This document shows, in pieces, positions 140-63,813 of a stretch of DNA of 64,000 nucleotides (the first letter of the stretch is position 1; every line of letters begins with the position of its first letter). The notes below the pieces were generated by a model. It was not told where the DNA came from. It saw only the letters and a program-made list of their open reading frames with translations, and did no database searches. The position numbers and the translations under genes are program-made. The stretch is from Carcharhinus longimanus (taxonomy: Eukaryota), in contig JASCQW010000081.1 of NCBI GenBank assembly GCA_030264375.1, positions 92,119,768-92,183,767 on the forward strand, read 5' to 3'.

Positions 140-148
140 CGTCCTCCA
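140..148 (-). CDS. Possible 9-nt micro-exon, xED
   Basis: tctttcttttccgacataaaaag|TGGAGGACG|gtaagt; consensus donor, atypical acceptor. Confidence 0.45.
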
Positions 149-3100
149 CTTTTTATGTCGGAAAAGAAAGACACGAGTCACTCAAGAGCTACTTCCAGCA
201 CGTTTGAACATTTCAAACATTACATTTGATATTCAGCATATAAAAAACGAGCATTAGGAATGAAATCGATTCAAATATTTGTATATTTCTATGTGAGAGT
301 CTGTGTTTGTAAATGATTCTGAGTAGGGCTTGAGGCCATTGCACTGTATGACATCTATTTTAAATTCTTGGAGGGAATTTTCCTCAGCCTCCGCGGCGTT
401 TACATGAACAGTGACTGGCACAGTCAGTGCGAAATTCACCGGAACTGGTAGATTGCTTAATATTTCGCACTTATTGATATTAGTTTGTCAGAACTATACA
501 TTTGCTTGCTGCTATAACGTAGTGCGATTTCCACAGTTAATCCCGGATGGGGCAAACAAAACAAGGTTACAGTCTTGCCAATGTGATGGGATCACCGTTT
601 TGGACTCGCAACAATTTAATTATGAGCGAAAGTCAATGAAAATGAGAATGTAATGAAATGTTAGCCGGCTGCCGGTTCGAAGTTCAACGCTTTGCACCAC
701 GGAGGAAAGCGGACGTTTGCTCCTCTTTCCTGATTTCTGATGTGGCAGCAAAACTTTGGCTATTGCTTGCCCCTGACTACATTATGGACACCCTCTTCTC
801 AGACAGGAGTATCGAATAAATGTATAAATTTCATTGTCCACAGCACCATGAGAATATGCAAATCCAAGCTATAACTCGCTTTGGAAAACATACTATTCCG
901 GCATTCAGCATAACTGAAACTGTAGCTAGTATGTTTTGGCCTCTTGTAGGCGAAAAATAAGAACGAATTGGTTTTTCAACTTATTTTCCATAGCTTAATA
1001 ATTCGAAACTGACGATGTCTATTCACAACGCAGGGCAGAGTTCCATTCATTTTGTTTCACCGGAAATCTACAGCTCCGATGAACTTCGCACTGACTGTCA
1101 GTCAGTGACCCATTGTCTATGTCAACGCCGCGGAGCCTGAGGGAAATTCAACAGGCAAAACTGAATCAATTAGATAAAAGAGCCAGCATTACGATTGGCT
1201 CGGAGTGAATATTCCAAATATGAGGCGATGCAAGAATATAAGGACATTATATAAGGGCAAATTCAAGGGCATTTGGAGCAGTCGACCATATGGGGCTTGA
1301 AACGTGCTCAGCGCCTCAATAGAATCATGGCTGAACTTATTAATCAACTCAATTTTCCAGTCTGTGTTCATGCATCTTGAACCCCTTAGTGTGAATTTTC
1401 TATTCAATAATTACGTTGCTGGAAGTTTCTGTGGTGGAGGGCACTTTGCGGAATGAAACGTCCTCTCGTCTCTGTTCTGAATATTTCGGTGCTAAAAATT
1501 CACTATAACATTTGGAGTATCATTATGCTAACTGGAACCTTGGGAGTAGTCGTGCGATGGAAAGGTTGAATAAAGCGTGCAATACATTGGCGTCACATTA
1601 TACACAATGACAGATATTAAATCTATGAAGGATAACGCGTTACTTTCTTAATTCGGGTTCCTGCACTACGACAGTAGCATCGTGGCAATATATCCCGGTT
1701 AAGATATTTAAACTTGCACGCTTCTTTTGTGATTCGCTTCACCTGTGGCACCATTGTAAAGCGAACCAAGATATTGACCCAATGTAGGGCATTTTTCTGG
1801 ATTGACTGTCCACAGCGCGTCTTTCAGCGAATAAAGAAGGGGTCGTTTTGAAGAAAAATAGTGTGGCAAAAACATTTTTAATAAATTTATTTGCTGATTA
1901 CGCGTCGCGAGACTGTCCGTATCTGGAAGTGAGACATGACTTAAACAAAACAGAAAAACAGCTTACCAAAGCGATGGTCACTAAATTATTGCAAAGAGGG
2001 CGGCATCGGATCATATCGGCATTTGTCCGATGCCACGTCTGATGTTTCTTTACAGTGATTTCAGTGCAACTGAATATTAATCACTGAGTATAACGGGCTG
2101 CCAACCCAAAGCCCACGTTATGCGGCAGATCTCCAGGGGATTTCCGATCCACAAATGCCGCAATTTGGAGAATATATCACGTACAAACTGTTCGTTGCCG
2201 TTCTCCGATTCAAACGAGATGACGTTGTTGTTGCACCAAGCTGTTCACCAGACAAAAAGAACTCTCGGCCGAGGTTACCGGTTATTCGGAGAGTGGAAAG
2301 ATGATATTTTTGTATTCATTCAAGGGATATGGGGTTCCTGGCAAGGCCAGCGTTTATTGCCCATCTCCAATTAACCTTAAACAGCGTGTCTTGCTCGGCT
2401 ACTTCCTAGTGCTCTAAAAAGTCGGCCACGTTCTATAAAGTTTTCCATGTTGTATAAAGTGTTGGCAACTTTTTTTCCCCCTAGTGAACAATGTTTTCAG
2501 TTCCTTGACTAACGAGTTCTTTGCAACTGAAATTTGTGAGATTTCTGTGCAGGCGAATAGGTCTTGCTTACCTCGAGAAGGCTGTCCGAATCCTGAGAAT
2601 AAATAGCATGAAATGAAGGCTGCTGCAATGCACTTCCGGTATAAGCGGATAGCTATTGGATACCTTTTGCGGTGTCTATCAGTTAGACGCTATTTTACAC
2701 ATATTCGTGCAACTCATCGCGTCTAAAAGACGAATGGTGAAAGCTTCCATATTTCCCGTCGACATTAAAATTCACTGTCATGCGTTTCTTAACAACAAGC
2801 GAGCTACCGAAAGCTACAATATTAGGTAACTCCGTGTATTACAGAACAGCTTCATATTTTATAACCTGATGCAAACATGCAATCCAGGCACATTAATCCA
2901 TAACTATTAATACACTGCAGACTGATCTACAGAAGCTATGCTTTTCCATGCCCAGAGAAGCCAAACTACTGCTGATGTTTGTGGTTGTAAAAATGCACAC
3001 TTCTGTAATATTCCAGCCCAAAATCTTTCACTATTCTGCCAGAAAAAAAAAATATTTATGTTAATAGAACGTCAGTAAGAGGTAATCGTCTAAAGAAAGG

Positions 3101-6100
3101 TCAATGCATCACAGGCCGCCAATACTGTAAACGATCGTCGATTTACAAGCCTGGTTCAACAATTGCTCGAAGCATCGCATGCACCGTGTCAAAAGCGAAT
3201 GCTTCTAATCCGAATTGAATGCAGCGAATGCTGGAATTGCTAAGGTAGTTAGAGAAGCCTGACACAATGCAATCGAGCTGAAGGTTCTGCTTTGTTTGCA
3301 AATGCAAACTACCCTGAGTGTTGGAAATTCGAAATACAATCGGAACGTTGTAGCAATTCTCATCAGTTCGGGCGTGTTACCCACTGTTCTGTAAAGGCAG
3401 TTAGATAAGGCCCCTGAAGCGTTAACTCTGTTCCTCTTCACAGATGCTGATTGACCTGCTGAGAATTTCCAGAATTTTTTTTAAACTTGGCTTGCTTTGC
3501 AAGCCAGACTCTGCTGATTGGAGATTTTCCCCGCACTTTGCGCTTCAGTTGCTCGAGAGTAATGTTGTCAATTAATTGGTTCAGGCCTTTAATTTTGCCT
3601 TGTTCCATTAGTCTCCCCATCCTGATTCAATTTCCTGGTGCATCTTACGTTGTCCCTTCATGTCGCACTCTGNNNNNNNNNNNNNNNNNNNNNNNNNNNN
3701 NNNNNNNNNNNNNNNNNNNNNNNNNNNNNNNNNNNNNNNNNNNNNNNNNNNNNNNNNNNNNNNNNNNNNNNNAACTCTGCACCATTGGCTTTGGCAGCGA
3801 GCTGCAAGAGATGAAAAAAAAACCGATTGACATACACCGCCTGCCAGCTTTTAAGACAACGCGTTCCAAGGGCAAGTTTTCAAGAGACTAGTCGGATATA
3901 TCAAGAAAACAGGCCGTAACTATTTTGTTCCATTCAAGCAAAGTAACCCAATGCTGTCGAGAAGACTATTATTTTGATTATTGCCTCTCATTCCGTGGAT
4001 TTATCAGTCCTGATTGTCGAATTTGCTAATCTGTCAGTATGTGATGAGTTCTACGAGGTATTTTTGAACTGAAGTAAAAGTGATAATTTTGACACTGTTC
4101 ACGTTGCAAAACACGCAACAATAGCTAAGCCACTCAGTAAACTCTCTTCCGATTTTCGTTCACATTAAAATTAAATACATGCAGAAAACATGGCATTGCA
4201 AGCGCGCCAGAACATGTGTCCAACTTGGGTCGCTTAATGGAAGAACACGCACCACTTACCTTTGTAACCGATTTTTTACACTGAATTTCCTTTACCCCAC
4301 AGAGTTTTGAACTAAATCGCAGAGGCGGGTCAAATAATAGATTTCAAAAGTTAATGAGGAAAGACCTGCCAATGGTGCAGAATAGCGAGGCGAAAATTGT
4401 ACACAGATTTTGACAGGAAGGGGCAACATAAGATACACTAGGAAATTGAATCACAATCGGAAGAGTAATGAAACAAGGCAAAATTAAAGATTCTTTAAAT
4501 GAGTTCACGCAGAATTCGTGGCAAGTTGGATGTATTCATGGCATAAATTGAAATAGTTGGCTATGACATGAGAGCTATTTCAGCCACGTGGTTGAAAAGT
4601 GAAGAGTGGTGACTCGTAGATAGTGGTTCTTTGACAGTCAGGAAGGATAAAGTATTTGTAAATTGTGTTACAGTCTGTTAATAAAGAATGACGTCTGCAA
4701 GATGCAAAGTCGATATCCATGAACACAAGCAATAGCAAGAGAATTATGCACTGTTTTGAGTTGTTTACCAAAGGGCAACTGAAAGTCGCTACCTTGTGCA
4801 GTAGAGCATATGTCACGAGTTAATGAAATTAAAGACATCTACTTTATATACTTTAATTTCTCTCATGCCTGTCTTTGGGATTTGAGTACCCACGCATCTC
4901 AGTCTGAAAACACGGACATGTTTATACATTAATTAGTGCGGAAGGCTAATGGAACCTTGGCCTTTATTGCGACTGTTTTAGAATATGTAAGTAGGTAAGT
5001 AGGTACTACAACTCTACAGGATATGGTCGCCATTTCATCTAGAATACGATTTTGTTCTCTTTAATTAAGGAAGAAAATCCTTGTTTTTCCGCAGTTCAGA
5101 TAACTGTCACTGGGGTTATTTCTGGGATTAAGCTCTTGTTTTCTGGGGATTGTTTGAACATTTTTTTGGCATACTGATTGAACTTTAGAAAAATGTGAGG
5201 CCCTCATTGAAAACAATATAAGGCTCTGAGGGTTTCTGAAGAATAGATGCTGAGAGGATGTTTCCTCTTGTGGGGAACTCCAGGTCTATGGAGTACAGTT
5301 TCGAAAGAAGCGCCCTCCCATGTAAGACAACGAGTAGGAGGTTTTTTGCTTAGGGATTCCTTTACTGTTTGAATTATCGTTGTTTTCTTTTGCTGAAAAC
5401 ATGGAATGCGAACGGAACCCGAGGCCTAATGATTCAGAGTGCAGAGTATTGCAAATTGACATACCATCTGCTGGAGTTAGATCTGCAAAAGAAATAAGAG
5501 TCTACAAAGTAATTGTAATAAATCTACATTGTTTTTGCTTGTATCTGATTACACCAAGTGTTACAAAATTAACCATGCAACATGGGCTTAATGCGTAACG
5601 TCAATGATTTGGATTATTTCAGCCTCAGCGCCAATAACAAACCATAAACAAATTTATGCAAATACCTGACCTTCACTTGGCATAATGAATGCAATATTAG
5701 CCACGTGCATGTTTTAGTTTATAATGCATTTTACCTTTACTCAAACCACAAGAAGAGGCAATGACATTTGCGTATACCTGCAGATTCTTTTTGCGATTAT
5801 GACTAAAGTTTTGTCCTATTCATTAACGTGTAAGGATTGCGACACATTCTCTTAGGTACGTGGCGACAAATCGAATATTGTCATCCATCATTCTATAAGC
5901 AGTGCGCTCTGTAGAACTCTCTGTAGAGGTGCACCCTGTTTACTAATTGGTTTCTTACTGGTTTCCAGCTGAATGTGATCTCAGCAGCAGGAAAGGCGCT
6001 TCCATCTGCAATTCTTCCTAGATAGCTGGTGATGAGATATTTGCTGTAGCGCTCATGTCGTCGAATACAATTAAGGAAGTGTTTGTTCTGAATTTGTCCC

Positions 6101-9100
6101 TTTATCTTGCCAAATTAAGTTACTTCTGTTTCGCGTTTCAACTCCAACATGACATATGGGAATGGACGCAGCACGTAAATAGAGTATTGTTGAGAAGAGT
6201 TACGTTTCTTTTTAATTACTGTCTAAAAGCAAAAGGAAAACAGAGGCAAACACATTGTTTGGTGCACGGCTATGTTTCACTTTTTGGAATAAGGAAAAAT
6301 AAAGGTAAATCGCAAAACAAATTTATTAATCTAACTACAAGTGTGATTTAAATTTTAAGTGTATGATTTAGTCACGTCAGGCAGGGAAATAGAAACCTCG
6401 ATCAGCGCGATGCGGAAATAACTTAAGGTGTTACGAAAAAAGAAATGTGAATCACAAATGTTGCGAATATTTGACTTCATTAATAACATTGAGGATAATC
6501 GTAATCTATTTAAATACAATCAAGTCGCTGAGAAGGCAGGGCTAGTTGCAGCAACGTTTCGGTGAGGAAGAGAAAATAGCTGATTTACCTTGTCACAGAT
6601 TATGGAAATGCGAAATGTAGCAAACAGATTAAAGATGGGGCTTGATTGCTGAGGATAGGAGAGGAAGTGCACTCCATATGCGGGTCTGAATGATTTCAAT
6701 TCCGTCTTGCAATACAGAGCGGATATGGCGCTAATTTGCAAGTAGAATAACATCCACATTGGTACGAATGATAAGGGCAGATCTGATTTGATTTGATTTA
6801 TTATTATTGTCATATGTATTAGCATACAGTGAAAAATATTGTTTCTTGCGCGTTATACAAACAAAGCATACCGTTCATAGAGAAGGAAACGAGAGGGTGC
6901 AGAATGTCGTGTTATAGTCAGAGCTAGGGTGTAGGGGAAGATGAACTTTTTGCAAGTAGGTCCATTCAAAAGCCTGATGGCAGCAGGGAGGAAGCTGTTC
7001 TTGAGTCGGTTGGTCAGTTGATGCGTGATTCAGACTTTTGTATCTTTTTCCCGACGGAAAAAAGCGGCAGAAGGAGTGTCCGGGGTCCCCCCCTGCGGTC
7101 TTTAACTATCCTGGCTATGGATGGGAGTCTGGTTTGCGTGATGGATTGGGCTACATTCACGATCTTTTGTAGTCCCCTGCGGTTTTGGGCAGAGCAGGAG
7201 CCATACCAAACTGTGATACAACAAGAAAGGATGCAAATAGAGAGAGAGAGAAAGAGAGAGAGAGGTATTTGGCCATACTCCAAATGTGGATATTAAATTA
7301 GAAAGTGGATAACAGAAGAGCAATCAGCGGATTACTCCCTCCAGCAAGCGCAAGTGAGTATAAAACTAGAAGGATTAGATAGCTGAATGAGCCACTAGGA
7401 AGTTGGTGGAAGAGGGAGACATTTTGATTGTTGGAACATTGCGACTGGCTTTGGGATGCAATGTGTTCAGGAAACATTTGAAAGAAGGACAACAGTGAAA
7501 TAGTGGTATTGATTAAGGAGAGAATCGCAGTGATGGAGAGAGAGGGAGACAATGTTCCAGAGACGTCAAATAAAGACTACATTTGGCTGGAGCTAGGCAA
7601 GAAGAATGTGCAATTTCAAGGCTCCATGTAGGAGCAGCAACAAATGGAAAGGATTTAGTGGAATTAAAGTGCAAGGGAATGGCAAGAAATGTGCAAGAAT
7701 TTGAAAGCGGTTATTGTGAAGGACTTTAAATATCCGCAGGCAGATTGGAAAGGCTGTGCTCCTGCTCCTGGCTTACAAAAAAAGAGAAAACGAAATCGGG
7801 AAAATGTTGGTCTGAGGTATCGAATAATCCCTTATGGGACTGCTTTGAGTCAGTGGACTGGTCAATATTTAAGAACTCAGCGAACAACCTGAAAACGTAC
7901 GCCACTACATAACTGACTTCATTAGTAATTGTGTAGAAGACTTCATGTGTTCCCCAACCGGAAACCATAGGTGAACAGGGATATGCACTGTCTACTGACG
8001 TTCAGGTGTGAGGCGTTCAAGGCAGGCGACCTCGACTATACAAGAAAGCCAGATATGACCTACGGAGATGCATTTAAAACGCCCGAGGACAGTACCGGAA
8101 CAAGCTTGAGTCCCAGGCTAGCCACATGGACTGACACCGACTACGGCACGGTCTGTAAAACATAACAGACTACATGCTGAAGAATGTAGGATCACCATCA
8201 TCAATGCGCCCCTCCACGATGAGCTCAACGCAATCTATCCCGTTTTGAGCAAGACGTCAACGCGAGTGCACCCTCCACTCCGGAAATGTCGGTCGAACTC
8301 GTATCCGAGGTCAACATTGCAGATGTCAGGTCAGCCAGAGTTGAGGGGGATTAACTGCTTTCACTCTCGAAAATGTGGAGAATAATGGGGCACAGCTTTC
8401 GAGTCATTGATAAAAGAGGAAGAAAAAGCGACAGAAGGATAATACTTCTTCACGCAGCGAATGGCCTACAATACACTGCCTGAGCGGAGCCAAGCCCAAT
8501 GGAAGCATTCAAAGGGGAATTCAACTGATATCTGAAAGGGATGAAGATGCTGGATTCCGGGGAGAACGGGGTGCAGGGGAGGGGTGGAGAGGTGGGGGTG
8601 GGAGCGGGAGAACGGCACTAAGTGAATTTGTTATTCGAAAAGTCAGTGCAGACAGTGAGTGGTATACATTCCTCCTGAGCTGCAATAATTACGTGATGAT
8701 GCCACTCATCCAACATGCAACTGATCAGCGCTTGTTCGAGATCACAACAAAGAAAATGGGCATTATGTCAACCGTCTTTAAGGTTGTGCAGAATATTTTG
8801 ATTGTCTTGATTTTTTTCTTGAAAACCAATGCATTAAATGCCACATTGAATAATTATCACAACGTTTAATTCTAAATCAAACAGCACACATTCTGAACAA
8901 GTTCCCGTAAGTTTCCTCACTCGCAGCTTTGAGTTGGTCGATCAGTTTTCCAATTTCTGAAATCAGAATGAGAATGGACATAAGTTTGCTTCACTACAGG
9001 GGCTGTAGACAGCACGACTCGAAAGTAATTCATTTCACGAGAATACGTTGAATAATGATTCATCTGAAGCAGTTCCCAATCTGGAGTTTGGCTGTTTCTT

Positions 9101-51100: not shown

Positions 51101-54100
51101 TCAAAGGCTATGGCAGAATTGGAAGTTCACATAATGATTTCCAGAGTGTCAAGTGAAGGGACAGAGTGTACAAAACAATAAACCACAGCAGTAACTGGAA
51201 CTAAAGTAGAAAAAGACAGTAAAAAAACCAAAGAAAAATGTGTTTTTCTTAAATGCACATAGTATATGGTATAAAATAAATTAATTAATGGCACATGTTC
51301 AAGCTAATGACTATGCTTTTATCTTGATGTGTGTACAAGTAGATCGAAGTTTCGAACTAAATATTCAGGGCAATGTGACTTTTTGTAGAAAAGGCTGGAA
51401 GAATGCATGGTACGTGTTGGTGCCATGCATTCTTGTTGATACAAGATGGAATAAGTATGATAGCAACAAATGACCATGGATTGGAAGAATTCATCTGACC
51501 GCTGCTCAGAAATAACCAGGGAAGGACCCATATGGTGGGAGTAACCTATAGCCATAGCTACATCATAGGATGGAAAATTAATTGGGTGATACCGTTGGCA
51601 TGCAAAAAGTTGGTGCATAAATCATGGGTGAATTTATTCTTCATGTGCATTGCGAAAATTATGTTGGCAGAGGTAGACATGCTGACGATTCAATAGCATG
51701 TAATGGGAACAGAATCCTGGAATAAGATGCCGTGACCCAGACAGGAAACAGGTTTTTTTGGATCATGAATGTGTAATGAGGCAATTTTAATCAACTAAGT
51801 CAGAGTAATAGATCTCCTGGGTAACAGTGACCACAACAAATCGAATTTAGCATTTACTTTGATGGTGATGAACCTGGGTGAAAACCAAGTATGCACGAAT
51901 TAAAGAAGGGTGATTACAAATAAACGAGAATAGAGGTGGCTGGTGTAGACTGGGAAAAAAATTCTTCAGAAGATATGATGTAGATCAGCAATGGCAGACA
52001 TTTATGAAAATATTTCATGACTCACAAAGAGGACATACTCCAGTGAGGAAGGGAATTCTTGGAAGGGGATGAATCAACTGTCCCAGGAAATTAGGATAAA
52101 CTGCTAGTGAAAGACTAATAAATCGGTGTAGATGAATTTAGAAATAATTACTGTACAGAAAAGGTATAAAGTGCTTGAAAATACAGAGGTACAGTTGCAC
52201 TGAAACACATAAAACTACTGCTACAAAATTTAAATATGTATTTTTGAAATATTCTGCACATGTTTGCAAAAAGAGATTGCCACAAGGATAATGGAATGAA
52301 AGCTAAGTGAGAGGAACCACATTTTTAAAGAACAATACAGCCATTGAGGATAGTTTTTATTAGTATAATTTACAATTTCCAAGACACTAACATGAATGGT
52401 GCAATTCAATTTCTACTGATAAGAAACACTGGGCAGACAATGAGAATGATAGTGCTTGAACGATACAACCTAAGTAATTGAGAGACTTGTAAGTGACAAG
52501 TGGGTGCAAATTTCCAGAATCTATGGACGAATTAATTTGCATGCTGCCAGAGGGTAGGAAGTAATAGGCCAAAGGTAAATAATCAATTTTAGCACGATTG
52601 AGCTGTCCTATTAAGATGGACAGATTTGGCAAGCAGATGATTTCTGAAAACGTATAATTGCGGAACATGTTGATAATGTAATTAGAGTAATTTAAGCTGC
52701 CTCAAAATGCTCTCCCTCCATGGTGGAACCAAACCCGGGCAATAAATTGCGTCTTCAAATCAGAATTACTGTGTTCTTTGTTATTGCTGAGCTGTATTAA
52801 TAAGGAAAAATCTCCTACATGACGTCAGCAAAATACATAGGTCTTTGAAAAATTCTTACTTCAACCTTGATAAACCAAGAAAACTAAAGGTGTGAGTAAA
52901 CTAATTTATACAATTTAGCGATGATTAGTAGCAAGCCAGAAGACGTGAACAGTTTTGAAAAAAATAGACAGCCAAAATAATATAAAGAAGGGGGAGGTAA
53001 ACTTTAATGTTAAAACCAGCAATGCCAAAACGAAGAGCAAGTGGCTCTTGAAATACATGAACAGAAAAAGGGGCCAAAGTAAGCATCGGTCTTTTGATGA
53101 ATTGAGACTGCACAGCACGAGGGACACGGGTTCGATTCCCAGCTTGTGTCACTGTCTGTGTGGAGTTTGCACCAAAGCATGGAATACCCTGACCTGTCCA
53201 CCTAACCCCACATGCCAATACTTGGCCCATAGCTTTGAATGTTATGGAATGCCAAGTATTCATCAGGTTCTATTTAAGGATGTGAGGCATCACCGCTCCA
53301 CTATCATCTCAGGCAATGCATTCCAGANNNNNNNNNTGTTCTGAGTAGAAAGGATTTTCCTCAAATCATCTCTAAACCTCCCATCCCTCACTTTGAACTT
53401 GTGTCCCCTCTTAACTGACCCATCAACAACGGGAACTACTGCTCTCTGTCCATCATGTCCATGCCTCTCATAATCATGGACACCTCAATAGGGTCGCCCC
53501 TCAGTCTTCTCCATTCCAGCGAAGATAAACGAAGCCTGTTTGTTTTCAACTTAAATATTCCATCCCAGGCAGCATCCTGGTAATTCTCCTCTGCACACCT
53601 CCAGTGCGTTCACGTCCTGTGGCAAAAGTAAAATCGGCAAACTCTTACTGGTTCTTTGCAGAAGTTGTTTACATTCTGAAAAATAAATGCATGATGTCAG
53701 AAAGGTATTTGAAAACAACACAAAGACATTTCTTAAACATTGTCACAGAAAAACTATGAAGGACCATCCAACTATAGTAAAGCTATGGCGCAGGAAGTAG
53801 TCAATAAATGTTTGCACCAGCCAGAAAAAAATATTAGCCACTCATTTTAATCTAATTTTCCAGCACCCAGCCCATAGCTTTGTATTTTAAAGTATTTTGT
53901 ATGAAGATCCAGGTACAGCTCTTAATGTCAATGCGCACAACTTAATTTTTTTTCACTTTAATCTTTTCCTGTCAATTTTATGCTCTTTTATTCTATCTAT
54001 TTTACTTTCGATGCTCATTTTATCCTCCACACAGCTTACCTTCTGACCTATAAATGTATCGTCGGCAAAACTGGCTATGATGTAATCGGCACCTTTGTCA

Positions 54101-57100
54101 AAATCATTAATGTAAGTCGTAAATGCGTATGGTCCCAGCACGTATCCTTACAAATCGATTTTCGTTATAGTTCTCCTGCCTGCAAATAATCCATTTATTA
54201 TGACTCACTGTTTGCAGTTAGTTAGCCAAAGTTCCATTCTTGTAATTATTTCACTCTTTACAGAATGAACTTGTGCAGTAATATTCAGATTAGTATCTTA
54301 TTCCATATCTATTGGAAATAGGAGTAATTCTACATCAATTGGTTCTTCTTGATTCAACCTTCAGCCAAGCTTAGCCATTTTGTCCTTCAATCTATGCAAA
54401 AGTTTCAACCATCCATGATTATGACAGTAGTTTACTTCCAAGGTCGAATTATATCTCCATTTTCCTGACACACTGACCTCTCTGTAATTAGTCTACTATA
54501 GAGTTCTGTTGAAAATCGAAGCAACTTCGAGAAACAGCACTTCATCTTGCAAGTGACATTTTACAACGTTTTTGATGAAGTATTGAGTTCAACAAATTAG
54601 ATGGTAACCTCTGTGTCATTCTGCTATTTTTATTCGTTTCTCTCTCTCGCTGTTTTGTCAGTTATGTTGTGTTCAGACGACAAATCTTTACTCATTCTCA
54701 GCTTCTCTAAGTATACTTTGTTTTGGCTCTTTACACATCCTCTTGGTCTTACTCCAATCAATATTTGTCCTTTATTGTGTCCTTCCCATCGGCTAATCAC
54801 AAATCTCATCTTTAGTTCCTTTCCCATTCCCTTTCTTCATTTACTCAATAACTATTGCCAACTGATTCCGCGTTGTAATTTACCGGTACGGACGTTAACT
54901 TTTTCTCTCGGCACCAGTACGGCCTGAATTACTGTCTATTTCCAAAGTGTTCTATTCATATTCCACGTTATTTTCTTGTTGTAAAGCATTCCAAACACTT
55001 CAAAAAATTGTGTTAACACAAGATATAAACGTCTGTAATAAATTACGAGTCCTCCATTCAAGAGAGACCTGATTTTAAGTCGCTTAAAACGACTCATTAT
55101 TTGTATGAGATTATTTAGTTTATTAGTCACAAGTAAGGCTTAGTGCAATGAAGTTACTGTGGGAGGAAGTACCAGCGACCCAGTTCAATTCCTGGCTTCT
55201 CCTCGCACAATTACCTCTAATCGCCACAATCCGGCGCCTGTTCACGTCAATTAACCTAACCAGTATATCTTTCAGATTGTGGGAGGAAACCGGAGCACCC
55301 TGAGGGAAAACAAGGAGAGACGGGGAGAACGTGCAAACTCCACATAGACAGTGAACCAAGCCGGGAAGCGAACCCGGGTCCTTGGCGCTCTGAGGCAGCA
55401 GTATTAACCTTTGTGCCACCATGCCGCCCAATTTACTGCCCCTAATGATACACTGTAATGAGATTTTCCTGGGTAAGTATGTTTGAGAGAATTTAAACAT
55501 CTTAGAGAACCTCCCTGCTGCCTGTCGGTCCACTAATCAAAAGCAATTCCGTGAGTCTTCCGTTAAGCTCCATGGAACGTCACAATCTCAAACTTGAGAT
55601 GTGGTGGGCTTTTTGAACTGACCTTGATCCAACTCATTCAACCTTAAACCAAGATGATTGTATTCATCGCTGGCATTATCAAGAGCCAATTCTAGATATG
55701 CATTAATCTATGAATCCGAATCATACATTATGTTGCGTCGTTTACCTTTACACTTCGGGTCAATTCCTAATAAAACCGAAAAACAAAAAGCAGATCAAAC
55801 ACTTTCTGTTAAATTCACAGCACGTACGTGATACGAAGGTCATATTTGATCGAATCGTCAGTAGAAAGGGAAAGCAAAAAAGCGGGTACCTGGAGCGGCA
55901 TAGAAACAACCTCAAATGCAATGGATGCTTCCAGACTGAAATTACCCACTTCTTGGGAAAGCTGTTTGTACGTGTCATTGATGTAAGGGGGTGGGGGTCG
56001 CTAGAGGGGCGAGAGTGTTTTACCTATTGTATTGCAGAAAGTTGTCAAAATACACAGGTGAAAGCAGATGGCTCTAATCTTGTATATTTTGTTTGAATTC
56101 AGGGATTATGTTTTCAGAACGGCTTTTCTCAGTGTCGCCCGGGATCTGGAGCAGCATGTGAATTACACATTCCGAAGTATATTTCAAGGACATTTTTAAC
56201 ATTGGGCAATGGTTGAATTGCTCTTTCGATGTCAAAGAACAACAGGGCATTAAAGACTGATCCAGAGATTGCTGCGGCAGGGTTGTGTGGTGTCATGGTC
56301 GCTGTTCTCTGAAGGCTGGGTAGTTTCATGCGGACAATGGTCTGTTTGAGGTTGTGTTGTTATTTGAAGGCAAGAAGTAGAGCTGTGGGGATGACCTTGG
56401 CGAGATGTTCGTCTTCATCAATGACACGTTGAAGGCTCTGGAGGAGATGTCGTAGCTTCTCTGCTCCTGGGAACTACTGGACAATGAAGGGTATACTCTG
56501 TCTGCCATTTCCCATGTTTGTCTTCTGAGGTGGTCGGTGCGGTTTTTCACTGTGGTGCATCGGAACTGTCGACCGATCAGTCGAGTACCATATTCTGTTC
56601 TGAAGAGGGCATGTTTCAGCATCTGGAGGTGTCTGTTGCAATCCTCCTCATCTGAGCATTGTGAACACGACTTGCACTCACCTGATGTAGGAGCAGCGCT
56701 CCGAAAGCTTGTAGCTTGTGGTGCCAAATAAAGCTGTTTGACTTTAACCTGGTGTTGTGAGACTTCTTACTGTGCTTACCCCAGTCCAACGCCGGCATCT
56801 CCACATCATGCCAATTATTACTGACAGGGAGCTCAAGTGGAAAATGTCATGGAAATTCCATTCTAGTTCTTAGGTCGAGCTGGCATTTATGCAGGATCTC
56901 CTTTTCTATCTGTAGGGTAACGAATAATGCATACAGGATATAAAGTTGCATGAACACTTCCACATCACTTAAGGCAGCCTGGCAAGTGAAAACTTAAAGT
57001 CTTAAGGATATATTTGAGAAAATAATTTCGTCGTACCTGCCTTTACTTTGCCCTTCAGATCTGCAAGTGAACATATTACATTAGACTGATTATGTCCTTT

Positions 57101-57341
57101 ATTAAAGTTTCAATGAAATAATGGCATGCGACTATGCGCAATGTTCTAAGGCAAATGATTGCGATTCAACGCCTTGTCTTTATTCCTACGGAATAATTTT
57201 TTTCTATTAACTGCAACAGAAAACCGGGACAAAAATCTACCACAGGTTGTAGATTCTATATATTAAATCACTGTATCTTATTAATATCTCCGTCCAATCT
57301 GCAGTAAGTCGCCGTCGTTTGTTAGCGACGAGAGATATCAC

Positions 57342-57372
<31 letters not shown>

Positions 57373-60300
57373 GAGAGGGAAGGAGGGAAGGAGATGGGTA
57401 AATCCCGAGGCAACCACTCCTTATCAAGCGTTGACAGAAGGCAAGCAAGAAGCCTCCAAGCTTGAACCGTCGTGGTTGGCGTTTATTTTCACCAGTCTAG
57501 CCAACTGAGGTGATTGATAACAAATAGCAGCACACTGACTACCTTGACAACAAAACCCTACATCACATTTTAGAGCGGTGTTTCCAATAAATTAAGAATA
57601 TTGATAACGATGAGAAGACAGTTACGATAAGGATAAATCATAAAATGTATTGACGTTAACATCTAATCATATATTCATATATCAGACATAGAATATTGTT
57701 CATTCACGTAATGGCAGACAATGTTAACTCGTCTCTTGATTTTTTTTCTGAATCACTACACTATATCTCTCTGGGAGGACATTGCTTATATTGCTTAACA
57801 GATGCCAGTATCGTAGGTAGTCATATGTTGGGGGAGCCCATATGCAATTTTTTTTCACATTGAAATGCAGTGGCTTCGCCGTTTTGCACCATTGAAATTT
57901 TATTCATGTCACATCTCAGTGATAACGAGTTTCTTCTTCTTCAGTATGTCCCCGGTTTCCTGCTGCAGTGAGTAGAGAAAAAAAAGTAGGGATAAACACA
58001 GAACGTTGACTTTCATCCTTTGGTGTTCCAACACTGCTACATTAGGAACACTGAACCCATGCTACATAGACATCAACGGACAGAAGTTGAATATTTCTTA
58101 CCTTGTGTCACAAGAGACATAGGCGGCCTGGCTTAAAAGTCAGTGAATGCTAACGTGCAGATCCAGCAAGCAATCGGCAAGCAAAATGGTAAGTTGACTG
58201 TTATCGCAAAAGGATTTGAGTACAGAAGCAAAAATGCATTCCTCCACTTTTATAGAACGTTTGTTAGATACGAACTTGGAGTGTAGTCTACAGTTTTGGT
58301 CCATTACATAAGGAACGATACAATGTAGGACGATGGCTCGTGCACGCTGTCTTCACCAGACCTATTACCGGGATGGCAAGTTGCCCTGTGAGAAGTGATT
58401 GAGAAGACAGTGCCGGTATTAAGAATTTGTTAACGCAGAGGGTATTCAATAAATGGAATTCTCTACCACAGAGAGCTGTGGGCACTCTGTCATTGAACAT
58501 GTTCAAGATAGCGATCAATATCAATTTAGGTGTTAATGACTTCAGGCATATAGGAATAGCGAAGAAAATAATTTTGTGATAGACCATCATCCAGGATCTA
58601 ATCCAATGGCAAAACATGTTCGAGGGTTTGAATTGCTTCCTGCCGTTTACATATCCATATGTTCGCTATGACACTCAGCTAGACTGGTGCAGATGCTTAT
58701 CCAACTCTGAATCGGACGCTGTAGCGAGGTTTCTATGATTAAGATGTAAATGCATCCCTGGGAACATCTAGTCCAGCTCCAATTACTGCACGGAATGACT
58801 CACCGTGAAATCATTAGTTGGAGAATCCCTACATTTAACTTTTTACAGACTCAATAATCTAACTCTGCCTCATAAACAGTGCAACTATAATAATATTAAA
58901 TTGTCCATATCTTGCTCACGCAAAGTCGCAACGTTTACCGCTTTGCCCTTCTAACCCCTTCTAACTCGGGTCAACAAGCTTAAGAAACTCAACTCAGACC
59001 ACAAAAATCGGCATTGCTGTACATTTGGCGCTACTCCGATGTCTCAATTTCATTCATGAAATAAAATACCAACACCTGAGATGGCAGACATAGAGCAGGG
59101 GCATCTTCATCTTCACTTTCGAAATTTAATATTCCTCAAATCTCTAGAAAGTGACATTCAGTCTGCACGTTTATGGTCACGAAAAGCCTAAGCAGCAGAA
59201 AGTTGTACATAGAAATTTGCTGATGCATTACAGTTTGTCATGCAGAGTGTTTTATAGAAAGTGAAATAAACTATTGCTTTGATTGGGATTTTGCCTTAGC
59301 ATCATGTGATTTGAACGCAGTCTCATAAGATGCACAATATTTACACTGCCTATTTCCAACTTACCTTTCAGTGCCTTGAGCGTTTCAGCTGTGAGACAGA
59401 AAACATAGATCATTAACTGACACGGAAGATGTTTTTGCAACTGAAAATAGAGAACATAACATAAGAACATAAGAAATAGGAGCAGGAGTAGGCCATCTGG
59501 CCCTTCGAGCCTGCCCCGCCATTCAANNNNNNNNNNNNNNNNNNNNNNNNNNNNNNNNNNNNNNNNNNNNNNNNNNNNNNNNNNNNNNNNNNNNNNNNNN
59601 NNNNNNNNNNNNNNNNNNNNNNNNNNTATACGTCTCAATGAGATCTCCCCTCATTCTTCTAAACTCTAACGAGTACAAGCCTAGTTTATTCAGTCTCTCC
59701 TCACAGCTCAACCCCCTCAATTCCGGCATCAGCCTAGTAAACCTCCTCTGCACTCCCTCCAAGGCCAAAATATCCTTTAGTTCAATTATGATTACATTCA
59801 ATTATTTACTTATAGTCCTTTAATTATAGAATATTCGAGTTCTTGAATGATGATGTTGAAATTTGCCTACTGTTCGTCTTGAACCTAATATAACATATTA
59901 ACAATTGTTGTTTCCAAGTTTTGCATAATAAATCCATGTCATTGTTTTCGACATTATTTCAGAACCATCTTTACATTGAATCATAGCCAATATCCAGTTT
60001 GTACAGGCAGAATCTATGCGAGAAAAACTCTTTCTACACAGTTGGAAGCTTTGCTGACAGGGTCAGCATTATTATCTTTCTCTAAATGCCGTTGGGAAAG
60101 TCCTGACAATCTGCTTTAAAGAAAAAACTTATTTAATTGTTAAGGAATAATTATAATATGGTAAGCCATTAAGTATTAACAACGGATAAAACATATGAAG
60201 GATTGCCTTTATTCGTGGTGAAGGAGTGGGATATTATCGGTCCTGAGGAAATGTCATCGACTTGACATATAACCATTTGAGCGCCAAAGCATTTCCTGCA

Positions 60301-60438
60301 TTTCTGTTTTTAGTTCATTTCCACATTGACTTCCATTCCTTGCGTCGCAATAAATATAATTCCACATAACAAGAAACTGCTCATAACCATGAACATATAT
60401 TCCTCAGTTACCAAGCTTTACTCGCAGTTCGTCTCTCT
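140..60438 (-). CDS. Internal part of an unidentified multi-micro-exon gene (about 20 symmetric phase-1 exons, roughly 150-160 codons over 60 kb); start and end not seen
   Basis: Repeated (Y)n-AG|3n nt|GT units on the minus strand, all open in phase 1. Paralogous exons differ by synonymous codons. Individual exons are listed below. Confidence 0.8.
374..1150. mobile_element. MITE-like non-autonomous DNA element with ~80-bp imperfect terminal inverted repeats
   Basis: 374-454 is an imperfect reverse complement of 1065-1150 (ctccgcggcgtt / aacgccgcggag; acagtcagtgcgaa / ttcgcactgactgt). Confidence 0.65.
1902..1922 (-). CDS. Possible 21-nt micro-exon, DTDSLAT
   Basis: atgtctcacttccag|ATACGGACAGTCTCGCGACGC|gtaatc; weak donor. 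Confidence 0.35.
2306..2420 (-). mobile_element. L2-type 3' tail fragment
   Basis: ttttgtattcattcaagggatatgggg...ctggcaaggccagcgtttattgcccatc resembles the reverse of the L2-like tails at ~44250 and ~46270. Confidence 0.55.
2572..2592 (-). CDS. 21-nt micro-exon, xFGQPSR
   Basis: gctatttattctcag|GATTCGGACAGCCTTCTCGAG|gtaagc. Confidence 0.8.
3400..3485 (+). mobile_element. Penelope-related short 3' fragment
   Basis: gttaactctgttcctcttcacagatgctgattgacctgctgagaatttccag; related copies at ~35075-35180 (minus) and ~54890-54950. Confidence 0.5.
3649..3669 (-). CDS. Possible 21-nt micro-exon, ECDMKGQ (acceptor abuts an N gap)
   Basis: NNN-cag|AGTGCGACATGAAGGGACAAC|gtaaga; pyrimidine tract hidden by the gap. 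Confidence 0.45.
4900..5380 (+). mobile_element. Decayed CR1 LINE 3' fragment
   Basis: gaaggctaatggaaccttggcctttattgc...gatgctgagaggatgtttcctcttgtgggg, CR1 ORF2 C-terminal sequence. Confidence 0.7.
5465..5482 (-). CDS. 18-nt micro-exon, (N/D)LTPAD
   Basis: ctcttatttcttttgcag|ATCTAACTCCAGCAGATG|gtatgt. Confidence 0.8.
6785..7235 (-). mobile_element. LINE 3' end (Rex1/Babar-like)
   Basis: ORF 7014-7283 [35 protein letters not shown] is a typical Rex/Babar RT C-terminus; (gattt)n tail. Confidence 0.75.
7330..8700 (+). mobile_element. Nested decayed LINEs: CR1 endonuclease fragment, Rex/Babar-like fragment (~7850-8330), CR1 3' fragment
   Basis: [13 protein letters not shown] matches the APE GDFN motif; KPWMN-like region ~7960; 3' cttcttcacgcagcga...gcattcaaagggg. 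Confidence 0.6.
8921..8956 (-). CDS. 36-nt micro-exon, (E)[11 protein letters not shown]
   Basis: ttctcattctgatttcag|AAATTGGAAAACTGATCGACCAACTCAAAGCTGCGA|gtgagg; amphipathic helix pattern. Confidence 0.8.
10277..10782 (-). mobile_element. CR1 LINE 3' end, runs into a gap
   Basis: ORF 10363-10653 [17 protein letters not shown]...[14 protein letters not shown]; (catagaaa)n tail. Confidence 0.9.
11793..11819 (-). CDS. 27-nt micro-exon, VRQLLVKDI (weakened donor)
   Basis: cttttattacag|TGAGACAACTGCTTGTAAAAGATATCT|gtaaat; near copy of 33777-33803. Confidence 0.65.
12950..13085 (-). mobile_element. HE1-type SINE 3' fragment
   Basis: atagaatccctacagtgcacaaggaggcc...tttaccctgctaatcc, shared with the other SINE copies. 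Confidence 0.7.
13442..13782 (+). mobile_element. Full-length HE1-type tRNA-derived SINE
   Basis: A/B-box head (cagtgattagcactg...gagttcgattccc), body ggagcttgcacgttcttc...gctccggtttcctcccacagtccaaa, CR1-like tail. Confidence 0.88.
14135..14390 (-). mobile_element. HE1-type SINE
   Basis: Reverse complement of the SINE at 13442-13782 (gggaattgaacccg, cagtgctaattactgtgccaccg). Confidence 0.85.
14677..14922 (-). mobile_element. HE1-type SINE, internally deleted
   Basis: ccctgctaatctccctga...gtgagaggaaaccggagcacccgg...ctggcggtgcgaggcagc. Confidence 0.75.
15259..15282 (-). CDS. 24-nt micro-exon, VHMPEEFI
   Basis: ttcctttctgccttatcacag|TACATATGCCAGAAGAATTCATTG|gtaaac; like ATTEELYS it is a 24-nt EE exon directly before a VRQLL exon. 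Confidence 0.75.
16834..16845 (-). CDS. Possible 12-nt micro-exon, ETGS
   Basis: cattccacgatcaacag|AAACGGGGTCAG|gtatgg. Confidence 0.4.
18300..21385 (+). mobile_element. Long decayed CR1 LINE (near-complete ORF2: endonuclease plus RT)
   Basis: Frameshifted fragments [29 protein letters not shown]...SKFAGNTKL and [12 protein letters not shown], followed by a CR1 3' tail. Confidence 0.93.
21400..22580 (-). mobile_element. Older decayed CR1 ORF2 fragment
   Basis: AVWLTIR...[10 protein letters not shown] (APE VWxxI...GxxYRPP-like); ccaggattaactccatcagg region. Confidence 0.55.
22595..23305 (-). mobile_element. CR1 3' end carrying a 5'-truncated SINE insertion (22984-23098)
   Basis: ORF 22690-22914 HSLRVRGR...[13 protein letters not shown]; insertion flanked by ATGAGATC at 22976-22983 and 23099-23106. 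Confidence 0.88.
23999..24034 (-). CDS. 36-nt micro-exon, [12 protein letters not shown]
   Basis: cctgcttttttttacag|AATTTCAAGCCTTAAAAAGTCACTGTTTCGGAACAG|gtcagg. Confidence 0.7.
24281..24328 (-). CDS. Possible 48-nt exon, [16 protein letters not shown]
   Basis: tttttatataattttag| 48 nt open in phase 1 |gtattg; longer than the other exons and compositionally unlike them. Confidence 0.25.
25591..25635. repeat. (CA)n/(CACG)n microsatellite
   Basis: Directly visible. Confidence 0.95.
25900..27370 (+). mobile_element. Highly decayed CR1 ORF2 fragment interrupted by a SINE
   Basis: [14 protein letters not shown] (APE SDH motif); aatgcaactcctttactcaaaacgggaagg...cagcccagttagtctaac (NYRPVSL-like). 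Confidence 0.7.
26305..26678 (-). mobile_element. HE1-type SINE
   Basis: catagaatccctacagtgcag...gggaggaaacgggagc...ctggcgctgtgaggcagcagtgc. Confidence 0.85.
28082..28108 (-). CDS. 27-nt micro-exon, ADIVREKEK
   Basis: tttactttcatgcag|CGGATATTGTGCGTGAGAAAGAAAAAG|gtaaaa. Confidence 0.75.
28650..29800 (+). mobile_element. Highly decayed Penelope-like element (RT C-terminus to GIY-YIG region)
   Basis: ggctatgggtatcctcatcggctcc (AMGTxMGP-like); gtctactgcattcgctgcctccaatgcagcgtcctctacatt (VYCIRC..C..LYI). Confidence 0.65.
30050..30670 (-). mobile_element. Decayed CR1 3' fragment
   Basis: ccctcataatcttgtacacctc...ggcgaccagaacc...tctagctgtggcct. Confidence 0.75.
31552..31750 (-). repeat. (CA)n-(CT)n microsatellite followed by a HE1-type SINE fragment
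   Basis: Visible repeats; atagcgtggtcaatccacctaac...caaactccacac. Confidence 0.75.
31940..32053 (+). mobile_element. Solo Penelope pLTR 3' fragment
   Basis: gagcagcgctccaaaagctc...gtgagacttc...gtccaacgccggcatctccacatc matches 50990-51102 and 56690-56808. Confidence 0.85.
33777..33803 (-). CDS. 27-nt micro-exon, VRQLLLKDI
   Basis: cttgtatttcag|TGAGACAACTGCTTTTAAAAGATATCG|gtaagt; 25/27 identical to 11793-11819. Confidence 0.85.
36369..36392 (-). CDS. 24-nt micro-exon, ATTEELYS
   Basis: tgttctctatcttttcacag|CCACCACAGAGGAATTATACTCAG|gtaaaa. Confidence 0.8.
37331..37351 (-). CDS. 21-nt micro-exon, GPKGKFL
   Basis: tttattctatattccag|GACCAAAAGGGAAATTCCTAG|gtaatg. Confidence 0.75.
   Translation of the reverse strand, partial: DQKGNS
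39742..40645 (-). mobile_element. CR1 LINE 3' part, runs into a gap
   Basis: [30 protein letters not shown]; tagaaacatagaaa tail. Confidence 0.9.
41573..42054. repeat. Complex (GAAA)n/(GGAA)n purine tract between gaps
   Basis: Directly visible; explains the spurious KER-rich and FLS-rich ORFs. Confidence 0.95.
42859..42894 (-). CDS. Micro-exon of 24 or 36 nt, EIHALRGK(GSAK)
   Basis: T-run-atatacag|AAATCCATGCACTACGAGGAAAAG|gttctg, or extended 12 nt to aag|gttgat; resembles the EFQALK exon 23999-24034; both donors weak. Confidence 0.55.
43540..44312 (+). mobile_element. Decayed L2 LINE 3' part
   Basis: gcagcaag-like acttgggcaatattccag...acaaatcagg...cttggaaatatatc...ataaat...gatgctcacaatccatgtctgaatgaaaaaaa tail. 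Confidence 0.65.
44457..44780 (+). mobile_element. Full-length HE1-type SINE
   Basis: gggcggtatggtggcacagtggttagcattgctg...gctccagtttcctcc...gggctgaatggcct. Confidence 0.88.
44879..44905 (-). CDS. 27-nt micro-exon, xRQLLEKTA
   Basis: catttaccttgcag|TGCGACAACTCTTGGAAAAAACAGCAG|gtaaat; paralog of 33777-33803 and 11793-11819. Confidence 0.85.
45225..45510 (-). mobile_element. CR1 3' tail fragment
   Basis: gaccataagacaaggcgcagaagtagg...catcgagtctgctctgc...tctcagccttgaa. Confidence 0.7.
45995..46300 (+). mobile_element. tRNA-derived SINE with an L2-like tail
   Basis: gtgacgtagtgg...cgggttcaaatccc (B box)...gggcagttagggatgcgcagtaaatgct. Confidence 0.65.
46490..48310 (+). mobile_element. CR1 5' portion: tandem 5'UTR monomers, ORF1 esterase end, ORF2 endonuclease start
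   Basis: [37 protein letters not shown] (CR1 ORF1 SGNH esterase); ttcaatgcgagaagt (FNARS) and ggtaattttaacttcccc (GDFNFP-like). Confidence 0.85.
48659..51102 (+). mobile_element. Penelope-like retroelement (decayed RT plus GIY-YIG), 5'-truncated, with inverted pLTR and TSD
   Basis: [39 protein letters not shown]; [21 protein letters not shown]; [14 protein letters not shown]; 48659-49180 is an inverted copy of 50540-51060. Confidence 0.93.
50978..51016 (+). ncRNA. Minimal hammerhead ribozyme motif in the Penelope pLTR
   Basis: CTGATGA-a-GGAG cagct CTCC-GAAA; the inverted copy at ~48711-48748 reads cac-CTGATGA-aggaacagctcttc-GAAA-gattgtg. Confidence 0.65.
51116..52110 (+). mobile_element. 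Decayed CR1 (endonuclease region); continuation of the ORF1 remnant at ~48430-48645 split by the Penelope insertion
   Basis: ttaaatgcacatagtata (LNAxSI), atcatgggtgaattt, ctgggtaacagtgaccacaac (LGNSDHN). Confidence 0.7.
52392..52415 (-). CDS. Possible 24-nt micro-exon, IEIELHHS (NAGNAG acceptor, 21-nt alternative)
   Basis: gtttcttatcag|TAGAAATTGAATTGCACCATTCAT|gttagt. Confidence 0.4.
53090..53620. mobile_element. HE1 SINE head (+, ~53090-53172) joined to a CR1 3' fragment (-)
   Basis: cacagcacgagggacacgggttcgattcccagcttg...tggagtttgcac; then ccctcactttgaacttgtgtcccc...cagcatcctggtaattctcctctgcac. Confidence 0.75.
53649..53675 (-). CDS. 27-nt micro-exon, ECKQLLQRT
   Basis: gcatttatttttcag|AATGTAAACAACTTCTGCAAAGAACCA|gtaaga; KQLL motif related to the RQLL exons. 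Confidence 0.75.
53860..54350 (-). mobile_element. CR1 RT fragment
   Basis: [17 protein letters not shown]....ASFADDT. Confidence 0.8.
55112..55430 (-). mobile_element. HE1-related SINE
   Basis: gtgggaggaaaccggagcaccc...gcgaacccgggtccttggcgctctgaggcagc...gtgccaccatgccgccc. Confidence 0.88.
55746..55766 (-). CDS. 21-nt micro-exon, GIDPKCK
   Basis: ctttttgtttttcggttttattag|GAATTGACCCGAAGTGTAAAG|gtaaac. Confidence 0.75.
56290..56808. mobile_element. Rearranged Penelope fragment: coding part on the minus strand joined to a plus-strand pLTR end
   Basis: [32 protein letters not shown] matches 49980-50100; 56675-56808 matches the pLTR at 50978-51102. Confidence 0.88.
57037..57060 (-). CDS. 24-nt micro-exon, DLKGKVKA
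   Basis: atgttcacttgcag|ATCTGAAGGGCAAAGTAAAGGCAG|gtacga; KGK shared with exon 37331-37351. Confidence 0.7.
57190..57210 (-). CDS. Possible 21-nt micro-exon, VNRKKLF
   Basis: ttttctgttgcag|TTAATAGAAAAAAATTATTCC|gtagga; weak donor. Confidence 0.3.
57340..57395. repeat. (GA)n/(GACA)n/(GGGAA) microsatellite
   Basis: Directly visible. Confidence 0.9.
58110..58670 (+). mobile_element. Decayed CR1 3' fragment
   Basis: gcaaatggt-like...ggatttgagtacagaagc...tggaattctctaccacagagagctgtgg. Confidence 0.8.
59365..59388 (-). CDS. 24-nt micro-exon, AETLKALK
   Basis: gttttctgtctcacag|CTGAAACGCTCAAGGCACTGAAAG|gtaagt; consensus donor. Confidence 0.85.
59452..59778 (-). mobile_element. CR1 3' end (gapped)
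   Basis: [49 protein letters not shown]; (ataagaac)n tail. Confidence 0.9.
60412..60438 (-). CDS. 27-nt micro-exon, (E)RDELRVKL
   Basis: gctttattccctttcag|AGAGAGACGAACTGCGAGTAAAGCTTG|gtaact. Confidence 0.75.
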
Positions 60439-63783: not shown

Positions 63784-63813
63784 CTTGTGTCACTCCTTCA
63801 AGTGAGGTTGCTG
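63784..63813 (-). CDS. Possible 30/27-nt micro-exon, AATSLEGVTQ
   Basis: ttatatttctctcag|CAGCAACCTCACTTGAAGGAGTGACACAAG|gttaat; NAGNAG acceptor, weak donor. Confidence 0.35.

Follow-up and report, generated by a model that had tools for sequence, protein, structure and literature searches.

The micro-exon genes of schistosomes encode secreted products, and combinatorial skipping of their exons has been shown in transcripts. Guinea-pig enterophilin-1 is a soluble protein that combines an extended leucine zipper of about 30 heptads with a B30.2 domain; proteins of its type bind trafficking or cytoskeletal partners in epithelia. Predicted RefSeq isoforms of the sort discussed below rest on RNA-seq. 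Enterophilin-1 is described as binding SNX1 and lowering surface EGFR (PMC13749957). Chicken BG genes are described as having signal, IgV and transmembrane (TM) exons followed by 13-36 tail exons of 21 (18, 24) nt, with a split first codon (1+2) (PMC5938342, PMC4046983). The structure so described includes no B30.2 domain (PMC5938342), and the zipper protein, a soluble BG tail, is reported to regulate actin-myosin (PMC4046983). In butyrophilins, a variable number of heptads is reported to precede B30.2, and the genes to be MHC-I-linked in several cartilaginous fishes (PMC12841164).

Here, we examine a window of 64,000 nucleotides from the shark Carcharhinus longimanus (G000:C81:92119768-92183767), which is the middle of a single minus-strand gene of ~408 kb, called gene B. 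A preliminary description of this window had likened its small exons to BG and butyrophilin tails, and the comparison is apt: heptad repeats lie on small phase-1 exons with a B30.2 exon downstream. Like BG and the zipper protein as these are described, gene B belongs to an MHC-linked tandem family with a coiled-coil tail of many tiny exons that split a codon 1+2, a variable exon number and a likely soluble tail form; unlike chicken BG it has ~120 exons, mostly of 27 or 36 nt, and ends in a B30.2 exon, and the search for Ig and TM exons yielded none. Butyrophilins, which have a signal peptide, an extracellular IgV (+IgC) domain and a TM segment, share with it heptads followed by B30.2 on one terminal exon and the MHC-I linkage, but they have few heptads as against over a hundred, no Ig or TM module was found in gene B, and its B30.2 falls outside the butyrophilin rows that we sampled. 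By general architecture rather than by any alignment of sequences, enterophilin-1 resembles gene B as a soluble long heptad rod with B30.2 and without Ig, TM or RING; it is, however, mammalian, and its 30 or so heptads compare with well over 100. TRIM7, TRIM21, TRIM39 and A33 likewise join a coiled coil to PRY-SPRY, are cytosolic and lie in near-MHC clusters, and TRIM7 and TRIM21 are the top fold matches; in TRIM proteins RING and B-box precede the coiled coil, which forms an antiparallel dimer. No RING or B-box was found in gene B, its micro-exon rod is about ten times longer and its B30.2 forms a separate clade. The gene B family differs from the schistosome genes in having no signal-like start and in isoform models that skip one or two exons. 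As candidate families, triadin, TSBP1 and the schistosome genes were set aside on account of the terminal B30.2 exon and the leucine heptads. The tiny-exon heptad tail of BG and butyrophilins is here stretched to ~120 exons over 400 kb, with a 27+36-nt unit equal to three heptads and with no Ig module or membrane anchor found.

The micro-exons of the window

The window (GC content 41%) is vertebrate DNA in which an informative long open reading frame is absent. As the preliminary description had proposed, AG..GT units were scored on both strands and in shuffled sequence, using position weight matrices built from generally known vertebrate base frequencies (units of 6-45 nt, score >=6) and 60 local dinucleotide shuffles of the window. 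The minus strand yielded 35 candidates, 20 of which had lengths divisible by three (3n) and 18 of which were also open in phase 1; the same counts were 18, 7 and 5 on the plus strand and averaged 13.5, 4.7 and 3.1 (+/- 1.8 on the last) in the shuffles, with maxima of 25, 12 and 8. The exons and candidates are listed in the order of transcription, with catshark values as identical residues and paired paralog scores given against the control.

63784..63813, minus strand: probable 30-nt micro-exon, absent from the preliminary list; weak splice score, in-order paralog A alignment 64 vs 34
60412..60438, minus strand: 27-nt phase-1 micro-exon; splice scan, catshark 4/8
59365..59388, minus strand: 24-nt micro-exon; top splice score of the window, catshark 4/7
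57037..57060, minus strand: 24-nt micro-exon; catshark 5/7
55746..55766, minus strand: 21-nt linker micro-exon; splice scan, paralog 85 vs 34
53649..53675, minus strand: 27-nt micro-exon; catshark and paralog alignment
44879..44905, minus strand: 27-nt micro-exon; catshark 7/8, paralog alignment
42859..42894, minus strand: 36-nt micro-exon; ortholog and paralog, both donor choices (24 or 36 nt) weak
37331..37351, minus strand: 21-nt micro-exon; splice scan, catshark, paralog
36369..36392, minus strand: 24-nt micro-exon; splice scan, catshark, paralog
34901..34927, minus strand: 27-nt micro-exon, overlooked earlier; ab initio, catshark 7/8, paralog
33777..33803, minus strand: 27-nt micro-exon; ab initio, catshark 7/8, paralog
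30772..30807, minus strand: 36-nt micro-exon, overlooked earlier; splice scan, catshark 8/11, paralog
28082..28108, minus strand: 27-nt micro-exon; splice scan, catshark, paralog
23999..24034, minus strand: 36-nt micro-exon, divergent; splice score 11.5, weak, partial, in-order paralog match
16834..16845, minus strand: 12-nt micro-exon; catshark 3/3, paralog 104 vs 34
15259..15282, minus strand: 24-nt micro-exon, divergent; splice scan, catshark 2/7, weak in-order paralog match
12866..12892, minus strand: 27-nt micro-exon, overlooked earlier; splice scan, catshark 8/8, paralog
11793..11819, minus strand: 27-nt micro-exon, last base T, weak donor; catshark 8/8, paralog
8921..8956, minus strand: 36-nt micro-exon; splice scan, catshark 9/11, paralog
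5465..5482, minus strand: 18-nt linker micro-exon; splice scan, catshark, paralog
3649..3669, minus strand: 21-nt candidate, unconfirmed; pyrimidine tract inside an N run
2572..2592, minus strand: 21-nt linker micro-exon; splice score 11.9, weak in-order paralog match
140..148, minus strand: 9-nt candidate, doubtful; strong donor, poor acceptor, 1/2 protein match

Fifteen of the 22 window exons tested with their flanks align in order to a tandem paralog, with scores of 62-172 against 31-42 on the control strand. Three more (23999, 15259 and 2572) align weakly but in order, and for 60412, 59365 and 57037, whose catshark identities are given above, the paralog copy did not exceed the control. 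The earlier claim that the gene is real, lies on the minus strand and consists of symmetric phase-1 micro-exons is backed by both the strand and 3n enrichment and the ordered paralog and catshark matches, and we regard the reality of the gene itself as practically certain. All 20 of the units originally reported were located, every one on the minus strand, although 140-148 and 3649-3669 are unconfirmed, the latter with an acceptor that cannot be scored because its pyrimidine tract falls in the N run. The original list had, on the other hand, passed over 34901-34927, 30772-30807, 12866-12892 and probably 63784-63813, and the unit near 42.9 kb, which it took as 24 nt, is better fitted by 36 nt, going by the length in ortholog and paralog. 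Coding sequence totals ~580-610 nt in 64 kb, or ~0.9%, in agreement with the earlier figure of less than 1%.

Two further candidates were rejected, 53599-53616 because it lies only 32 nt from the previous exon and its paralog match is out of order, and 20879-20899 because it matches a repeat on the control strand. The stop-to-stop reading frames and tandem repeats of the window look like remains of retroelements or like simple sequence repeats, and neither accounts for the micro-exon units; by eye, degenerate retroelement-like remnants lie within introns at 49105-50137 (plus strand) and 56326-56766 (minus strand). A trio of 27-, 27- and 36-nt exons occurs three times in the window (8921-12892, 30772-34927 and 42859-53675) and again just downstream, which shows that the array grew by the duplication of multi-exon blocks.

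Extent of the gene and its relatives

In window-based coordinates (contig position minus 92119767), the scan of neighbouring stretches followed the micro-exon array from about -122,850 to beyond +600,000. Gene B is bounded by two larger exons.

C81:92399484-92399615 (window-based 279717-279848; L046:5717-5848), minus strand: start exon of 132 nt, the first coding exon
C81:91991296-91991804 (from window-based -127,963; L037:1529-2037), minus strand: terminal phase-1 B30.2/SPRY exon, encoding 169 residues

An ab initio model trained on minus-strand seeds was run over 664 kb: at F>=10 the minus strand had 82 candidates and the plus strand 4, and the 76 kb that follow the last micro-exon had none. 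Chaining by homology gave 124 micro-exons, 82 of them also found ab initio; some of the 124 are spurious and some real exons were missed. Our estimate for the gene is ~120. Their lengths are 27 nt (66 exons), 36 nt (29), 24 nt (13) and others (16); a GT donor follows 119 of the 124, the last base is G in 101, introns have a median length of 2.35 kb and the residue at the junction is Glu in 67/123 cases. Together they contribute ~1,190 residues, and the protein is therefore put at about 1,400-1,500 aa. The chained pick at window-based 113847-113885 is noise. Seven introns measure only 109-144 nt (e.g., window-based 101669-101831 and 174621-174815), and several of these close pairs recur in paralog A, a neighbouring gene described below. 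The start exon also carries a tyrosine motif, Y-I/M-N-I (L046:5800-5834, minus strand), which we take to resemble an SH2-binding site; it is kept in paralogs A, B and C and in the catshark and is absent from the Narcine model. The locus offers a natural test of how exons of 9-36 nt are recognised among kilobase introns.

The terminal exon matches Pfam SPRY (E=8e-10), and the structure that AlphaFold predicts for it (mean pLDDT 71, with the first 38 residues poorly modelled) finds its matches among the PRY-SPRY structures of TRIM7, TRIM21 and butyrophilin. Its best database match is the catshark protein XP_038671249 (945 aa, 63% identical over the exon), and searches with this protein and S. 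torazame XP_072329363 brought in more models from S. canicula, S. torazame and Narcine. The relatives are as follows.

S. canicula: XP_038671248 ('CENP-E-like') and XP_038671249 ('zinc-binding protein A33-like')
S. torazame: XP_072329362/3
Narcine: XP_069775413, -418 to -428 and -384 to -390
Callorhinchus: XP_042191566-8, chimaera models of 202-230 aa, almost without a rod

When AG..GT/GC 3n candidates were chained against the catshark protein, the chain scored 1862, as compared with 304 for the plus strand, 445-457 for three shuffled references and 481 for the reversed reference. Conservation in other sharks, on which the preliminary description had made its proposal depend, is evident at the protein level in ordered matches to catshark, and to a ray as well. 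The same description had considered the gene lineage-specific and probably unannotated. Neither view holds: relatives exist in sharks, a ray and a chimaera, and they are annotated, in fragments under misleading names. These RefSeq models agree with gene B in their exon peptides, the order of these, the start Met and the B30.2 clade; they differ in being automatic, fragmented or misnamed, and no database entry that we found spans the full ~1,400-1,500 residues. The start Met is common to the catshark and Narcine models, and the S. torazame model adds 22 residues ahead of it. Because the S. torazame and Narcine N-half models overlap both catshark half-models, a single reading frame from the start exon to B30.2 is likely, with a splicing pattern taken from the predicted XP_ models of relatives.

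In a tree of 38 B30.2 rows (midpoint root, limited sampling, the broken copy of paralog A left out), 15 rows form a family branch of their own with 100/100 support, apart from the sampled TRIM-like, butyrophilin and teleost A33 rows. The branch includes six exons of contig C119, one unnamed protein and models from basking shark, epaulette shark, catshark, Narcine and Callorhinchus, and all its named members are cartilaginous fishes. A family HMM, built from some of the proteins it scored, outscored the outgroup HMM for 21 of 206 SPRY-matching proteins (17 named, one query and three unnamed), and 17/17 named ones are chondrichthyan. The teleost 'zinc-binding protein A33' was rejected as an ortholog, since the tree places it outside the family branch; for the 55-kDa 'A33-like' protein of shark skin mucus, A0A401NX33, as it is described (PMC10707392), no tie to the micro-exon family could be established. 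A literature search, with most subscription papers outside its reach, found no description or functional study of this family. Automatic annotation has split a conserved chondrichthyan family and mislabelled its parts as CENP-E-, golgin-, LRR- or TRIM-like.

A tandem cluster linked to MHC class I

Gene B stands in an MHC-class-I-linked B30.2 cluster, next to at least three tandem paralogs. Paralog A, at window-based 645.6-310 kb, is collinear with gene B over two-thirds of the rod and lacks the remainder; its B30.2 exon (L049:5976-6456, minus strand) is broken by frameshifts and a stop, and 67/67 paired micro-exons are open. It is possibly a B30.2-less, BG-like rod or else a recent pseudogene. 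The 67 paired exons of A and B are 74.5% identical, contain no stops and give a dN/dS of 0.43 (95% 0.35-0.57), a value biased downward because the exons were picked by protein alignment; intron identity drops to 0.33-0.38 within 60 nt of the exons. Chained paralog A 'exons' after 327.7 kb and before 645.7 kb are noise. A third start exon lies at C81:93338109-93338180 (93.34 Mb) with micro-exons behind it; those at window-based 701-733 kb are probably part of this third paralog. A fourth gene has a related B30.2 exon at C81:94266558-94267058 (94.27 Mb) with matching micro-exons upstream; its 40 kb gave only 4 minus-strand against 3 plus-strand ab initio candidates, so its support is peptide likeness. 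Contig C119 holds another six B30.2 exons of the family branch, at 6.3-11.3 Mb, with one upstream micro-exon candidate in 20 kb.

The wider contig is rich in B30.2 sequences: 51 of 86 matches fall at C81 85.9-102 Mb, and 12 of 22 MHC-I matches at C81 84.5-88.9 Mb, 3-7.5 Mb from gene B, a distance that we count as linkage. A search for MHC class II beta matched nothing, and its control likewise matched nowhere. These surroundings, together with TRIM7 and TRIM21 as top fold matches and a copy number and length that vary as widely as in immune families (models of 202-945 aa; paralogs A-D), lend some weight to a RING-less, TRIM-like innate-immune sensor or decoy, the heads of which would read a pathogen or host pattern while the rod sets their spacing or recruits RING-bearing TRIMs. 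We judge such a sensor possible, if on the unlikely side: no RING or B-box was found, the sampled TRIM-like exons fall outside the B30.2 clade of the family, and the dN/dS, calculated for rod exons only, is below 1 and gives no sign of an arms race.

The modules that would make gene B a butyrophilin or a TRIM were sought directly. Across 934 kb (N runs unseen), tblastn with butyrophilin and RING-bearing queries matched only the SPRY exon and revealed no Ig, RING or B-box. Near the locus, no IgV match occurred among 102/197 scored candidates, and the stretches upstream of the start exons of paralog A and gene B contained no TM-like exon with a phase-1 end. No membrane-like segment was seen in 7/7 family proteins (highest 19-residue hydropathy <=1.35), nor any hydrophobic signal-like start in family proteins; Pfam recognises SPRY alone in the 945-aa catshark ortholog and no domain in the N-half models. 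Among the flanking modules that the preliminary description had thought worth seeking, a B30.2 exon was thus found downstream and signal peptide, Ig and TM were not. Because no Ig, TM or RING module was found, the gene is filed as neither butyrophilin nor TRIM, although it is built from the same parts.

A giant butyrophilin anchored in the membrane might nonetheless have gene B as its cytoplasmic tail, with signal, Ig and TM exons farther upstream or in unseen sequence. The small phase-1 exons of gene B followed by a B30.2 exon have the layout of a butyrophilin tail, and its start exon is preceded by a splice acceptor, with phase 1 open ahead of the ATG. The same contig, which also holds the MHC-I matches, carries five butyrophilin-like IgV exons at C81 99.8-101.6 Mb; lying among many B30.2 exons (99.7-101.6 Mb), they probably form a shark butyrophilin cluster. 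Against these stand the negative Ig and TM results just given, the mere ~30 kb between the start exon of gene B and the end of paralog A, and the start Met shared by the catshark and Narcine models; we hold a membrane butyrophilin to be very improbable. The gene B family bears on the modular assembly of ancestral-MHC B30.2 genes.

The rod, its isoforms and a possible function

Judged from its predicted translation, the product of gene B is likely a soluble coiled-coil rod of 1,400-1,500 residues with a terminal B30.2 domain. In each of three segments, the 3.5-residue hydrophobic periodicity (2.3-3.1) exceeds all 300 shuffles (maxima 1.5-1.8), and for the catshark N-half AlphaFold predicts helices, 55-170 residues long and joined by short linkers (3-sequence alignment, pTM 0.22). 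Single exons are rarely multiples of 21 nt (6/124), whereas such multiples are formed by 44 of the 123 pairs of neighbouring exons, for the most part 27+36. By length, therefore, the frame survives any skip, but the heptad register would be kept only by the skipping of pairs. Predicted isoform models of the relatives vary in frame. Nine Narcine isoform proteins have in-frame losses of 8, 8, 11 and 12 residues, one 23-residue extension and alternative ends; isoforms of the chimaera, catshark and Narcine paralog differ by 6-9 residues; and for the Narcine N-half the record name implies at least 17 isoform models. The combinatorial exon use foreseen in the preliminary description is not borne out by these predicted models, which skip one or two micro-exons each rather than combining them freely. 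Its statement that any subset of exons keeps the frame is correct as to length; yet 75 of 7626 exon pairs create a stop codon at their junction, and the skipping of a single 27- or 36-nt exon shifts the heptad register.

One such stop arises between the consecutive exons 11793-11819 and 8921-8956. The last base of the former is T, as against G in the paralog and in five sister exons, and the next visible exon starts with AA, so that the assembly reads a stop at the junction where the catshark models have Glu. The full-length protein consequently needs skipping, another allele or an assembly error. The T weakens the donor (score -2.8), and the exon may therefore be skipped, in frame; an 882-nt N run lies inside the intron concerned. 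In-frame skipping, a null allele and an assembly error may each apply and are equally open. A separate question from that of function is whether, in a family that is itself real, this copy is truncated or decaying, with translation ending after 11793-11819 to leave a rod without B30.2. The altered base and the resulting stop speak for truncation, which we nevertheless consider unlikely: the chained exons downstream and the 169-aa B30.2 exon are open and conserved, the weakened donor could permit a skip that keeps the frame, and the change could be a single-base assembly error, with that N run in the same intron, or a rare allele. Exon 11793-11819 is in any case a natural test of whether symmetric micro-exons buffer damaging mutations through skipping.

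Tentatively, we favour a reading in which the micro-exons splice into a soluble rod with B30.2, a cytosolic dimeric spacer-adaptor like enterophilin or the chicken zipper protein. Two chains would zip into a parallel rod of up to ~170 nm (1,190 residues x 0.15 nm), their paired B30.2 heads would bind a protein target and the rod would tie that target to the cytoskeleton or to the membrane-traffic machinery; the dimer geometry, the partner and the tissue of such an adaptor are here drawn by analogy with zipper protein and enterophilin-1. Rod length might be tuned by the duplication, loss or skipping of micro-exons, with 27+36-nt pairs (21 residues, three heptads) preserving the register and single skips adding a stutter. 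The whole could have originated as a butyrophilin- or TRIM-type tail cassette in which small phase-1 exons precede a B30.2 exon, without N-terminal Ig/TM or RING, although the B30.2 tree, in not grouping the family with butyrophilins, argues against a butyrophilin origin.

A rod of ~1,200 residues is far beyond the needs of an adaptor, and this feature would suit a structural filament or spacer of a specialised cell type (e.g., sperm, electrocyte or sensory epithelium), in which B30.2 would serve for assembly or anchoring. The open micro-exons of paralog A despite its broken B30.2, the BG genes described as likewise without B30.2 (PMC5938342) and the many isoform models of the Narcine N-half are consistent with such a filament. 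Gene B and its relatives in sharks, a ray and a chimaera nevertheless all have a conserved, intact B30.2 domain, and the chimaera models almost dispense with the rod, so that we rate a purely structural role as quite unlikely.

One may speculate, and we do so with considerable doubt, that these genes are an undescribed, ~400-million-year-old chondrichthyan family of MHC-linked, soluble B30.2 'molecular rulers', in which over 120 interchangeable micro-exons would set the reach (up to ~170 nm) and register of the rod by duplication, loss and cell-specific skipping, and in which damaged exons would be bypassed. If that were true, the family would represent a splice-programmed diversifier of spacing for an immune recognition domain, and its micro-exon arrays would be among the largest in vertebrates.
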